Positions 2,166 through 59,599 of a stretch of 64,000 nt of DNA are shown here, piece after piece. The position numbers and the translations under genes are program-made. Source of the DNA: an uncultured Alphaproteobacteria bacterium (GTDB lineage: Bacteria; Pseudomonadota; Alphaproteobacteria; Rs-D84). Position 1 is the stretch's first letter, and each line of letters starts with the position of its first letter. The notes under the pieces were generated by a model that was not told the DNA's origin, did no database searches, and saw only the letters and a program-made list of their open reading frames with translations. The stretch lies in assembly GCA_947053455.1 (NCBI GenBank), contig CAMRSV010000001.1:113010-177009 (forward strand). The letters are read 5' to 3'.

Positions 2166-2439
2166 AACAATGCTCTTTTCTGAACTCATCTGAATTCAAA
2201 TGAATCCATAGGGATGTGGGTTCGGGACTATAAAAGCCCTCGATTAGGCAGTGCTCGCATGCGTTATTTATCCGCACGGTTGCATTCGCAACAAAAGCAC
2301 TATGACCCATATTTAATGAAAATATAACAAGTACCTTTTCCCAGGAAACATTGCAACGCTTGTATTTTTTTATTCGTTCTGATAGCATAACAATGAAACC
2401 AAATGGGATATGGTTTTAGGACCGTTAGAAAGTCCTTGA

Positions 2440-2638
2440 TTCGACGGCGCATTGCGCGCTGGTTTTTGCGTCGGTGTTTTTTAACGCCGATGGTTCCTGA
2501 CATTTATCCTGGTCAGGAAGCTGCTGTCATACAACAGGGATTACCCGAAAGCAGCAGGGTCATTTCGAATCATGATTTTCTAAACTTCCTGACCGCCGAT
2601 TCCCATGGCGGTTTCTTCGTTAAACCAAGGAAGATATC
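2440..2638 (+). promoter_or_regulatory. Structured 5' leader (attenuator-like) upstream of the Cys-rich secreted protein gene
   Basis: Three elements: TTCCTGAC (2494-2501), GGTCAGGAAG (2511-2520) and CTTCCTGACC (2585-2594). The middle element can pair with either outer one. The third overlaps the left arm of the hairpin CCGCC-gattcccat-GGCGG + TTTCTTCG (2593-2619), 20 nt before the ATG. Confidence 0.5.
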
Positions 2639-3076
2639 ATGAAAAAAACTGTTACATTTTCGTTATTGTTACTAGGCACCATTTCAACAAACGCATTTGC
2701 TATCGTACGGCCCGATTGCAATGATAATACAACATGTTTTGATATAACAAATGGTCAAAGATGTACTACAGTATGCCCGACCTGTGACCAAGTAACACTT
2801 GGATGCCCATGCTGCATCGAATACGATACCACCGTATCCTGTACCTGCAATTCCGGGTATCATTCGGCGACAAATGCCACATATGGATGCGAATGCAAAA
2901 AAAATTGCGCCGCCGGATATTATGGTGATGGCACAACGTGCACAAAATGTCCAACACCCGGCACAACAACCGGATATGCACAAACCATCACAGATTGCTA
3001 TGTACCACAAAACACATCGGTAACAGATTCAAGCGGCACATATAACTATTCTAGCAATTGTAAGTACAATCTATGA
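2639..3076 (+). CDS. Small secreted Cys-rich protein, paralog family member 1
   Basis: Signal peptide MKKTVTFSLLLLGTISTNAFA and about 20 Cys. Shares C.AGYY..G..C..CP and C-terminal Y.Y[ST].NC.Y motifs with 58647-58913. Confidence 0.7.
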   Translation: MKKTVTFSLLLLGTISTNAFAIVRPDCNDNTTCFDITNGQRCTTVCPTCDQVTLGCPCCIEYDTTVSCTCNSGYHSATNATYGCECKKNCAAGYYGDGTTCTKCPTPGTTTGYAQTITDCYVPQNTSVTDSSGTYNYSSNCKYNL

Positions 3077-10592: not shown

Positions 10593-10868
10593 TTATTTCC
10601 CGCGATACGCATCGGCGTCATCGCCCCAATACCACGCGGGGATGCCGTATGTAAATATAAATATTAAAAATACTGTCGGAAATGGGGCACAGCCGGATTC
10701 TATATCCCGCAATTTTTCGACCGTTATACCAATGTCACGCGCAAACTGTTCCAACGATATTTGTGAATTTTCACGTATACTGCGGAAAAGTTCACCCGGC
10801 GGCATCCCGGTATCTTCTAGTGATACCAGTTTTTTTATCCCCGCCATTATATCGGCATTGTTGGTCAT
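10593..10868 (-). CDS. XRE-family helix-turn-helix transcriptional regulator, with a hydrophobic C-terminal tail
   Basis: Cro/C1-type HTH signature ISLEQFARDIGITVEKLRDIESG. Start chosen at MTNNADIM (ATG 10868). Confidence 0.5.
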   Translation of the reverse strand: MTNNADIMAGIKKLVSLEDTGMPPGELFRSIRENSQISLEQFARDIGITVEKLRDIESGCAPFPTVFLIFIFTYGIPAWYWGDDADAYRGK

Positions 10869-10917
10869 GTTTATACCCCCGTTGTGCAAAAACAAAAACC
10901 ACCGAAAAATTTCAAGT

Positions 10918-11060
10918 GGTTGGAGGTTCACGACTATGTAAGAAATAGTGTATGTGTATTCAATATATTTTCACATACCCTCCAACCTAGGATTGGAGAG
11001 ATAGTTTTTTGTCTTATCTAGACATCTTACGCGGAGTCGTGAAACTCCGTGATGGAATTA
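10918..11060. repeat. Structured repeat unit A (long hairpin GGTTGGAGG...CCTCCAACC plus a second hairpin)
   Basis: Near-duplicate of 11122-11245. Second hairpin is GGAGTcgtgaaACTCC. Confidence 0.6.
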
Positions 11061-11121
11061 CCATCAATGATTATTATAGTATATTAGGGAAAAATATCAA
11101 TAAAAAAACCGCTTTATTGCG

Positions 11122-11245
11122 GTTGGAGGTTCACAACTATCGTAAGAAATAGTGTCGTTTATTCATATATATCACGACCCTCCAACCATGGTTGAAGTTT
11201 CTCTTACGAGGGGTTGTGACACCCCACCGATGGAATACCCTTCGG
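11122..11245. repeat. Structured repeat unit B
   Basis: GGTTGGAGGTTCACAACTATCGTAAGAAATAGTGT...CCTCCAACC. The second hairpin GGGGttgtgacaCCCC differs from unit A but keeps pairing. Confidence 0.6.
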
Positions 11246-11286
11246 CACAATTATTATATCAACACAAAAATCAAATTGCAAATTTA

Positions 11287-58617: not shown

Positions 58618-58652
58618 TAAAAAACACCGGCATTTGCCGGTGTTTTTTAATT
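58618..58652. repeat. Palindromic terminator-repeat family, copy 4
   Basis: AAAAAACACCGGCatttGCCGGTGTTTTTTAAT between parB and the Cys-rich gene. Confidence 0.7.
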
Positions 58653-58913
58653 AGAATAATTGCAGTTTGCCGTGTATTGGAAATCACCGGTTGAATCTGA
58701 TTTCTGGGTGCCTGATGGCAGATAGCAGGCGGTCTTGCCGGTTTTATTTCGGTCGGCAGATGTGCCGCCATCCGGACAGGGCAGGCATTGGCCGTTTTCA
58801 AGGTAATATCCCGCCTTGCATGCGGTATAAGATATTGGGTTTGCAACGCAGGCGGCATATGCTATGCCAGGCCCCATGGCAAATAAAACAAAAAATAATG
58901 ATTTTTTTAGCAT
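58647..58913 (-). CDS. Small secreted Cys-rich protein, paralog family member 2
   Basis: Signal peptide ending AYA. CKAGYYLENGQCLPCPDGGTS and DFQYTANCNYSN align with 2639-3076. Confidence 0.65.
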   Translation of the reverse strand: MLKKSLFFVLFAMGPGIAYAACVANPISYTACKAGYYLENGQCLPCPDGGTSADRNKTGKTACYLPSGTQKSDSTGDFQYTANCNYSN

Positions 58914-58934
58914 ATAAACTTCCTTTAGTATATT

Positions 58935-59300
58935 TTAAATTTTGTCCCCAGGATAAAGATAGCTGCATATAAAACATTTATTTATGCCTCCTGGCGTGTG
59001 GTTTGTATAGTAAAAGCATGTTTCTCTTGATGGGGTTGCAGCGCATGTGCCATATGTTTGCGAGTAATATCCCTTATTATCGCTGGTTTCCCGGTCTTTT
59101 ATACGCGTGCAGGTGTTTCCGGTCAATGATAATATCCAGCCAGTTGGGCAAGAGTATGTTGTTTCTGTTTCCAGACTCGGGCAACAATAACCGCTTTCTT
59201 TATTAGCGCAGCATTCTAATTGATCTGGGCATGTTAACGAGGCTTGTGCTGTTGTAATAAATGCAAACGCAAGAATAAAAAACGGTATAAATTTTGTCAT
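58935..59300 (-). CDS. Small secreted Cys-rich protein, divergent family member 3
   Basis: Signal peptide ending AQA. 14 Cys. GYY..x..G.C element. Confidence 0.55.
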   Translation of the reverse strand: MTKFIPFFILAFAFITTAQASLTCPDQLECCANKESGYCCPSLETETTYSCPTGWILSLTGNTCTRIKDRETSDNKGYYSQTYGTCAATPSRETCFYYTNHTPGGINKCFICSYLYPGDKI

Positions 59301-59450
59301 TTTTGGCCTCTTTATTGGTTAAAACAAAACCACCAGGTTTTTTTGGTGGTCAGGAGGCTGAGAACAATTGCACGAATTGCACGATTTATTGGTTATTTAA
59401 TCGCCCTCCTGACCGTGGTCAGGAGTTTGTTTATCGTCGTAATAAAAACG
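59301..59450 (-). promoter_or_regulatory. Structured 5' leader (attenuator-like) of the Cys-rich gene pair
   Basis: GGTCAGGAGG (59348-57), CCTCCTGACC (59405-14) and GGTCAGGAG (59417-25) give alternative pairings. On the mRNA a CCACCA-n8-TGGTGG hairpin plus U-run lies directly adjacent. Architecture is the same as 2440-2638. Confidence 0.5.
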
Positions 59451-59599
59451 GCATGATACGCCACAAATATATTCCGACGTGTGCAATAGGGATTCTCAGG
59501 CCCTGCCGCGGTAACCCACCGCGATATAAAGATTATATGAATTTTCATGAATTGTGTAAAGTCAAAAAGGCCATATTGATAAATATTGCATTACAAACA

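Follow-up and report, generated by a model that had tools for sequence, protein, structure and literature searches.

A candidate transcription attenuator before secreted cysteine-rich proteins in gut Alphaproteobacteria, apparently akin to phage antisense RNAs

Small structured RNAs inside the leader of a regulatory gene are known from phages P1 and P7, whose c4 RNA (immI operon; RF01695, RF03163) has two exposed segments complementary to a two-part upstream site, with a second copy of the target where ribosomes bind the mRNA of the gene under control. The layout in P1 is said to read a1b1 - RNA - a2b2, and the small RNA is processed from the leader by RNase P. As Citron and Schuster (1990) are cited in PMC8201110, complementarity in P1/P7 heteroimmunity is kept while the sequences differ between elements. 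Another described RNA, sRNA-Xcc1 (RF02221), is annotated so far as a stand-alone, virulence-linked, trans-acting small RNA (sRNA). It was published with a length of 88 nucleotides (nt) and detected by Northern blot as a discrete RNA of ~100 nt (PMC2996969), and its published contexts are integron cassettes, where it lies upstream of symE, and prophages, as well as a position 5' of an ORF6N gene. Classical three-strand attenuators, for example riboswitch and T-box platforms, use mutually exclusive helices that share a strand, a terminator whose 5' arm overlaps the antiterminator, and nearly isoenergetic states. Here we describe a leader RNA with likenesses to each of these. It lies on the minus strand of a 64,000-nt stretch (hereafter the window; positions 113,010 to 177,009 of contig CAMRSV010000001.1) from an uncultured alphaproteobacterium of the Rs-D84 lineage, upstream of two tandem genes for cysteine-rich proteins. 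A preliminary description, made from the letters of the window alone, had flagged positions 59301-59450; a paralogous leader near the start of the window is called leader 1, and the one studied here leader 2.

Two exclusive folds in one leader RNA

The flagged positions form the 3' half of a folded leader RNA of ~215 nt, whose transcript would span ~59525, the predicted start site, to 59321. The leader would begin ~100 nt further 5' than the flagged 150 nt, with a 5' domain of its own made up of Pa, Pb, Pc and Pd, which pairs with the 3' half via two long-range helices, PK1 and PK2 (Table 1). In the 3' half, P1 (10 bp) closes a three-way junction, P1-P2-P3, and is followed by a terminator-like hairpin, T. 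The 265-nt leader 2 folds with z = -5.4 relative to shuffled sequences, and TCCTGACC occurs six times in the window against 0.62 expected, a count that 0 of 100 shuffles reach.

All elements of the preliminary description are found where it placed them: on the minus strand, CTCCTGACC (59425-59417), AC and GGTCAGGAG(G) (59414-59405), then CCTCCTGACC (59357-59348), which overlaps GACCACCA-n8-TGGTGGTT (59351-59328), followed by TTGTTTT (59327-59321) and the ATG at 59300. Its three-strand alternative pairing, overlapping a terminator-like hairpin 5' of tandem cysteine-rich genes, is real and is conserved in the RNA family presented below. Several details have to be changed. The stretch between the paired strands is there, with 47 nt (59404-59358) instead of 46, and it is no spacer, as it forms the hairpins P2 and P3 of the junction. 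The U-run does precede the AUG, at a distance of 20 nt from its end rather than about 25. The local palindromic pair exists as well, but its 2-nt loop is unclosable, and the hairpin is effectively one of 8 bp with a 4-nt loop. Likewise, CGTGCAATT is present twice in tandem at 59383-59366 but is particular to leader 2. We rejected this 9-mer as a functional repeat because it is unconserved in the family: here it arises from the palindromic P3 stem and a loop that chances to repeat the bases before it. Finally, the elements had been said to stay untranscribed if the promoter lay downstream of 59348; the TTTACA-17-TATAAT match at 59560-59532 lies 5' of every element, and a TTG...-17-TATAAT site is kept in register across the family.

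The two folds open to this RNA exclude one another: P0 and P1 share 59414-59406, and the 3' strand of P1 overlaps T by 4 nt. When each is forced in leader 2, the predicted energies are -31.3 kcal/mol for P1 and -35.2 kcal/mol for P0 and T together, and over 82 copies of the family the means are -32.2 (forced P1) and -33.4 kcal/mol (forced T). The folds are thus nearly isoenergetic in the model, as expected of a switch. The leader also has what is expected of an attenuator with an intrinsic terminator, that is, a G+C-containing hairpin and a U-run shortly before the open reading frame (ORF), with an antiterminator and an anti-antiterminator that share a strand.

We consider it somewhat probable that leader 2 is a cis-acting transcription attenuator, in which P0 and T would stop transcription and a P1 junction clamped by PK1 and PK2 would let it read through. 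In the stop state, P0 (CUCCUGA:UCAGGAG) would form and free CCUCCUGACC. This would allow T and its U-run to form, and transcription would end before the cysteine-rich genes. In the read-through state, GGUCAGGAGG would instead pair with CCUCCUGACC over the 10 bp of P1, closing the three-way junction and taking 4 nt from the stem of T. The junction would then be clamped to the 5' domain by PK1, between the Pb loop and the junction strand J3/1, and by PK2, between the Pb-Pc linker and the P3 loop. The helices with their covariation, the mutual exclusion of the folds and the gene context are established by the sequences; on the proposed reading, T would terminate transcription, P1 would prevent termination, and docking of the 5' domain would tip the balance between them. 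As for the input, our best guess is an RNA-RNA or RNA-chaperone signal rather than a metabolite.

The RNA family and its long-range helices

The first ORF behind leader 2, of 121 amino acids (aa), has homologues in three clusters only, all metagenomic. As these are too few to trace the family, a DNA pattern scan for the leader was used, with one genome per species, and at least 120 loci matched. About 85 of those listed are true copies. The other ~35 lie in high-G+C genomes (Streptomyces, Mycobacterium and others) and were rejected as chance matches by demanding flanking P0 and T elements. Among the matches listed, copies come almost all from metagenome-assembled genomes (MAGs) of gut Alphaproteobacteria, Candidatus Enterousia and its relatives, with several per MAG; at least five are found in one MAG, and three loci in the window. 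Enterousia, a member of the uncultured order Rs-D84, has genomes of ~0.75-1.0 Mb (PMC12306168).

An alignment of 83 non-identical copies (A2) is the basis of the pair counts given here. In the consensus order from 5' to 3', the promoter-like site is followed by Pa, Pb, the linker, Pc enclosing the G+C-rich Pd with its U-run, an A-rich linker, CUCCUGA, GGUCAGGAGG, P2, P3, J3/1 (6-7 nt), CCUCCUGACC, T with its U-run and a Shine-Dalgarno sequence, which reads CAGGAG in 45 of the 83 copies. Overall, 94.5% of the cells are paired and both sides change in 35 of the 52 pairs, a result that 0 of 500 shuffles reach, while slid controls are 36-51% paired. All seven pairs of Pa change on both sides, with 97.7% of cells paired. 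The Pb stem covaries (GAGG:CCUC, GGGG:CCCC), its family form being a 4-bp stem with an 8-nt loop, and so do Pc, Pd and the P2 stem; the loop of P2 has the consensus GAAUAUAUUGAAUAA, and in some copies it has an inserted hairpin. In a syntenic relative (L004), the leader is 90.7% identical to leader 2, compared with 73.8% for the coding sequence, 85.8% for parB and 76.7% for the upstream intergenic DNA; the protein itself is 55% identical to that of the 121-aa ORF.

As for the switch strands, 99.5% of the P0 cells are paired, and 15 copies have G.U in place of A-U, a replacement that is valid only in the sense-strand RNA. T is 100% paired, with A-U changed to G-C in three copies. P1 is paired in all 83 copies and is invariant except in leader 1, where G-C becomes A-U. 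Family covariation consequently says little about P1, and its test lies in the sequence variants. Within the window there are three of these, in which the 5' strand of P0 and both strands of P1 vary together. In leader 1, a change of CUCC to UUCC is matched in all three strands (UUCCUGAC, GGUCAGGAAG and CUUCCUGACC); at a third locus of the window, where UCAGGA becomes UUGGA, they read CUUCAACC or CUCCAAUC, GGUUGGAGG and CCUCCAACC. Phage relatives add three further variants of P1, each with a matching upstream P0 strand. Leader 2 had been presented as independent confirmation of the architecture of leader 1. This does not hold, because the two are paralogues; what does lend support is that they differ in a compensatory way.

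The two long-range helices bridge ~135 nt between highly variable partners, both always present in cis. For PK1, the Pb loop holds an exact 6-nt complement of J3/1 in 77 of the 83 copies, with 18 different hexamers. A copy's own complement is found in the expected region in 76/83 cases, against 22/1411 for foreign complements, and the helix is 99.4% paired with covariation at five of its six pairs. For PK2, at least six contiguous Watson-Crick pairs form in 74/83 copies, compared with 1.1% of foreign pairings, and 55 distinct P3 loops are seen.

Comparison with known RNAs and competing explanations

At gathering thresholds, Rfam finds nothing but a tRNA in the whole window. Rfam 15 at E <= 10 gives only chance-level matches to leader 2 (sau-41, isrD, MIR444), and ordinary Enterousia copies match none of its families, sRNA-Xcc1 at E <= 10 included. 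Leader 1 matches sRNA-Xcc1 with 38 bits (E = 2.9e-5), which is below the gathering score of 53 bits, and a viral contig with a near-identical P1 (L134) reaches 67.4 bits, above that score. The likeness consists of a 9-10-bp closing helix of the pattern GGnCnGGAGG / CCUCCnGnCC, a pair of hairpins and a 3' junction strand rich in U, and leader 2 also has the three-way junction, with P1, P2 and P3 paired. The internal loop AUACAA ... GAA of the sRNA-Xcc1 P2 is found in leader 1 but not in leader 2, whose P2 has a 6-bp stem and the loop AAAUAACCAAUA. In the Enterousia copies P2 is cut down to a loop, a hairpin with a U-run follows P1, and there is an extra Pc/Pd domain. Moreover, leader 2 is chromosomal, lying amid core genes and before secreted cysteine-rich ORFs rather than on a mobile element directly 5' of a toxin or antirepressor gene.

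In the phage and viral-contig relatives, a Pb-type hairpin likewise lies upstream, the linker is again complementary, and there is a strand of the P0 type. A common layout is found in L134, in Bordetella phage vB_BaM-IFTN1 and in a Stx2a phage: J3/1 and the P3 loop are complementary to the loop and linker of the upstream hairpin, and also to the loop of a second hairpin and to bases that overlap the Shine-Dalgarno sequence of the ORF behind it. By its score, L134 is a true member of sRNA-Xcc1; the two phage elements (L138, Bordetella; L137, Stx2a) were found by sequence similarity. Pfam identifies the ORF as Rha in L134, and in the Bordetella phage it is annotated as an antirepressor; gene identity covers these two, as the Stx2a phage record is unannotated. 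In Candidatus Contendobacter (L030 / L132), L030 has the upstream Pb loop only, complementary to J3/1, before a KilA-N gene. Flanking complementary sites are not described in the Rfam model or in the sRNA-Xcc1 papers searched, which deal only with the ~88-nt RNA, nor was the layout of upstream and downstream targets found in the literature searched.

In all this, the likeness to c4 lies in a small structured RNA within a gene's leader and in two exposed segments complementary to a two-part upstream site, here PK1 and PK2. The second target copy at the ribosome-binding site is present in the phage relatives but missing in the Enterousia copies, which have a terminator-like hairpin in place of the downstream target set. 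Downstream of T, the 83 copies show no enrichment of own-target (a2/b2-like) sites, own and foreign matches being distributed alike. The c4 models RF01695 and RF03163 have no match in the window, and a 19.7-bit match of L022 to c4-a1b1 was discarded as chance. From the classical attenuators, leader 2 differs in that no leader peptide, tRNA-binding element or known aptamer was found in the leader, and in that two variable Watson-Crick helices, formed inside one and the same RNA, dock its sensor part. The best reading is that the leader derives from a phage-type antisense module and represents an enlarged form, with a terminator added, related to the sRNA-Xcc1 junction RNA. The junction itself is related to sRNA-Xcc1, as judged from the match scores; the 5' domain, the double long-range docking and the P0/T platform are not found in Rfam 15 or the literature searched, nor are the amplification in a reduced genome and the set of secreted-protein genes.

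A number of points weigh against attenuation in cis. The promoter, the terminator and the read-through are all predicted from sequence. P0, P1 and T are near-invariant in the main type, so the covariation of the switch rests on about five sequence variants, and T is a modest hairpin of 7-8 bp. PK1 and PK2 are compatible with either fold, and we only infer that docking favours P1. Pd and its U-run form a second terminator-like site inside the leader, which has no place in the proposed mechanism. In the phage modules, a second target set at the ribosome site provides an obvious mechanism; the Enterousia copies have no such set, and the comparison with P1 c4 draws on the layout given for it in the literature.

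Among other explanations, that of an sRNA gene is the likeliest, though itself unlikely. The promoter-to-T transcript, or a processed junction RNA akin to the 88-nt sRNA-Xcc1, would act in trans, and the downstream genes would be expressed only by leakage through the terminator. This agrees with the detection of sRNA-Xcc1 as a discrete RNA, and with the first module of the third locus (~11281-11102), where a promoter-like site and a terminator-like hairpin of its own are present but no ORF follows. By manual pairing, J3/1 and the P3 loop of this module fit the Pb loop and linker of the second module with one G.U, while in the reverse direction, second module onto first, an A.C mismatch is met and they do not pair. 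Among the matches listed, none of 63 same-genome pairs of copies share both PK1 and PK2 sequences, as might be expected of separate addresses, but the figure is not significant, since only ~0.6 would be expected from the between-genome rate. What speaks against an sRNA gene is that the partners of PK1 and PK2 are always in cis, and that T and the ORF are only 35-75 nt apart. This leaves no room for a separate promoter, so that expression of ~80 downstream genes depends on passing T.

A riboswitch for a small molecule or ion is less likely still. The junction and the docked 5' domain would be its aptamer, and the ligand would stabilise P1 and block termination. The large, pseudoknotted and strongly covarying fold would suit it, as would the nearly isoenergetic terminator / antiterminator / anti-antiterminator platform and the highly conserved unpaired nucleotides of the P2 loop GAAUAUAUUGAAUAA, the Pa loop GGUGUU and the junction. 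The preliminary description had looked towards a ligand pocket, but nothing found points there: no aptamer class of Rfam 15 matches at gathering or E-value thresholds, and the closest relatives are phage antisense-type RNAs, which lie 5' of antirepressor genes and have evident RNA-RNA complementarity to the ribosome-binding site. The regulated genes, moreover, encode diverse secreted cysteine-rich proteins and helix-turn-helix (HTH) regulators with no metabolic theme, and the copies are many (at least five in one MAG, three loci in 64 kb) for genomes of ~0.75-1.0 Mb.

Control by a protein is, to us, a shade more doubtful again. An RNA-binding protein, either an antiterminator or a chaperone in the manner of Hfq or ProQ, would recognise the conserved loops, or the A-rich linker and the P0 5' strand, and would set the choice between P0 and P1 for the whole gene set. 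A/U-rich loops and a U-tailed terminator are features of sRNAs that bind chaperones. The leader has A/U-rich loops and a U-tail of this kind, and Hfq-binding signatures are reported for Xylella homologues of sRNA-Xcc1 (PMC12189769). Invariant blocks common to many copies per genome would fit one trans-acting factor, but they are also explained by the constraints of pairing with several partners, and the analysis turned up no candidate protein, nor any that co-occurs. A DNA-level element (mobile repeat, recombination site or inverted-repeat operator) can practically be dismissed: several repeats occur per genome and some are palindromic, but among the compensatory changes are many G.U pairs, which hold for the sense RNA alone, the orientation and the distance to the promoter-like site and ORF are fixed, and the complementarity bridges ~135 nt between highly variable partners.

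Three identities were rejected outright. A miniature inverted-repeat transposable element or other DNA repeat conflicts with the strand-specific G.U pairs and the fixed gene context. For a ribosome-mediated, leader-peptide attenuator, no conserved small ORF is seen, and the insertions and deletions in P2 would break any reading frame. A T-box was considered for the many copies and the variable "code", but the variable segments pair in cis and no T-box model matches.

If leader 2 is indeed a cis-acting attenuator, a large and complex cis-regulatory RNA family absent from Rfam 15, with at least ten helices and two long-range Watson-Crick contacts, would govern what appears to be the main repertoire of secreted proteins in a gut lineage (order Rs-D84 / Enterousia) that is uncultured and has a reduced genome. 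sRNA-Xcc1 would be recast as the central part of a leader module of the c4 kind; sites complementary to it lie upstream and, in phages, also where ribosomes bind the antirepressor mRNA, and this makes the mechanism directly testable. The 18 PK1 and 55 PK2 sequences would be natural material on the specificity of RNA-RNA docking and on orthogonal RNA switches. More speculatively, and in our view improbably, a c4 / sRNA-Xcc1-like module of the phage-immunity type may have been domesticated and amplified in gut Alphaproteobacteria with reduced genomes, with a private PK1 and PK2 address for each paralogue giving copy-specific RNA-RNA control of the secreted cysteine-rich repertoire, which is large and diverges fast. 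This control would act in cis, or in trans through stand-alone sRNA copies. The outcome would be a system, coded in RNA, by which surface or effector proteins are expressed selectively or in a variegated manner.

Downstream genes and other copies

Nearly all copies lie 35-75 nt 5' of a signal-peptide ORF (median 186 aa, 15 cysteines). Pfam has mostly no match for 76 of these downstream proteins, with four Ephrin_rec_like, two NCD3G and two TNFR-like matches; they are so sparse and mixed that no functional theme hints at a ligand. Leader 2 is found between the core genes parAB, pal, ung and infC, and neither of its two tandem ORFs belongs to a Pfam family. The features of the window and of the phage relatives are collected in Table 1.

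Table 1. Positions of the leader elements, neighbouring features and related elements (numbering of the window unless a contig is named).
Feature	Position	Strand	Details
Promoter-like site	59532-59560	-	TTTACA (59560-59555), 17-nt spacer, TATAAT (59537-59532); 11/12 consensus matches
Pa hairpin	59506-59524	-	UCGCGGU / ACCGCGG, loop GGGUU
Pb hairpin	59488-59504	-	Stem AGGG / CCCU; loop holds CUGAGAA (59499-59493), the PK1 5' strand
Pb-Pc linker AUUGCAC	59481-59487	-	PK2 5' strand; partner GUGCAAU 59373-59367; 7 contiguous Watson-Crick pairs
Pc helix	59435-59479	-	CGUCGGAAUA (59479-59470) with UAUUACGACG (59444-59435); encloses Pd
Pd hairpin	59450-59462	-	GGCG-UAUCA-UGCC, then UUUUU (59448-59444); terminator-like
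P0 hairpin (putative anti-antiterminator)	59406-59425	-	CUCCUGACC (59425-59417) - AC - GGUCAGGAG
P1 5' strand GGUCAGGAGG	59405-59414	-	Common to P0 and P1
P2 hairpin	59381-59404	-	GCGAUU / AAUCGU; A/U-rich 12-nt loop
P3 hairpin	59365-59379	-	CAAUU / AAUUG; loop and 3' side (59373-59367) form the PK2 3' strand
J3/1 junction strand UUCUCAG	59358-59364	-	PK1 3' strand; pairs with CUGAGAA of the Pb loop
P1 3' strand CCUCCUGACC (putative antiterminator strand)	59348-59357	-	Last 4 nt within terminator stem
Terminator-like hairpin T	59321-59351	-	GACCACCA-n8-UGGUGGUU (59351-59328), then UUGUUUU (59327-59321)
Shine-Dalgarno and start codon, leader 2	59312-59307; 59300-59298	-	AAGAGG; AUG
Tandem signal-peptide, Cys-rich ORFs	58647-59300	-	121 aa (58935-59300), 88 aa (58647-58913)
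Terminator-like hairpin, 14 bp	58649-58618	-	3' of tandem ORFs
Leader 1 (paralogue)	2385-2638	+	Pb 2418-2436; P0 5' strand 2494-2501
Leader 1, P1	2511-2520 with 2585-2594	+	T at 2591-2613
Leader 1, PK1	2425-2431 with 2577-2583	+	
Leader 1, PK2	2438-2444 with 2565-2571	+	
Third locus	10884-11281	-	Two tandem minimal modules; P1 is GGUUGGAGG / CCUCCAACC; found by profile search
sRNA-Xcc1-type elements with both target sets	L134 6320-6615; L138 800-1042; L137 790-1030		

The two modules of the third locus are without Pc and Pd, and a separate promoter-like site and terminator-like hairpin belong to each. They keep PK1 and PK2, and the P3 stem is changed compensatorily to CUAU / AUAG. The second module (11100-10884) precedes an ORF of 91 aa (10593-10868) with sub-threshold Pfam matches to HTH domains of the XRE type and, by eye, a hydrophobic C-terminal stretch. 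In other MAGs (L090, L108, L114, L073), minimal modules of the GGUUGGAGG type often lie 5' of small proteins that look XRE-type HTH-like by eye, and others (L042, L059, L069) precede signal-peptide ORFs. The occurrence of minimal modules before HTH-like genes indicates that the RNA module is not tied to cysteine-rich genes alone.

The terminator-like site formed by Pd and UUUUU (59444-59462) recurs at the equivalent position in the family, within Pc. If functional, it would release an RNA of ~80 nt whose only PK1 and PK2 strands are the upstream ones. In many copies (e.g., L013, L097, L106), a complementary run of A comes after the U-run of T (UUUUUC...GAAAAA), so that a read-through RNA could make a small extra hairpin just 5' of the Shine-Dalgarno sequence.

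The 88-aa ORF shares a motif, C-x-AGYY-x(n)-C-x2-CP-x(n)-CY, with the C-terminal half of the leader 1 protein (2639-3076), and this motif is similar to the Ephrin_rec_like repeats detected by Pfam in four further proteins associated with the family. Also on the plus strand, a 593-aa ORF (357-2138) has what we take, by eye, to be an FtsA/actin-like N-terminal part and a ribulose-phosphate-3-epimerase-like C-terminal part.

Records titled "Bacteroides fragilis" and "Muribaculaceae" (L067, L070, L097 and L099, CAVGNU01; L111 and L125, CAZJGX01) carry typical leaders with cysteine-rich ORFs; these contigs are probably mis-binned or mislabelled. Lastly, a palindromic element in an alphaproteobacterial MAG (L104, 6425-6556) matches Wolbachia sRNA 46 (RF02625) on its two strands with 46.5 and 41.8 bits, against a gathering score of 65.3.

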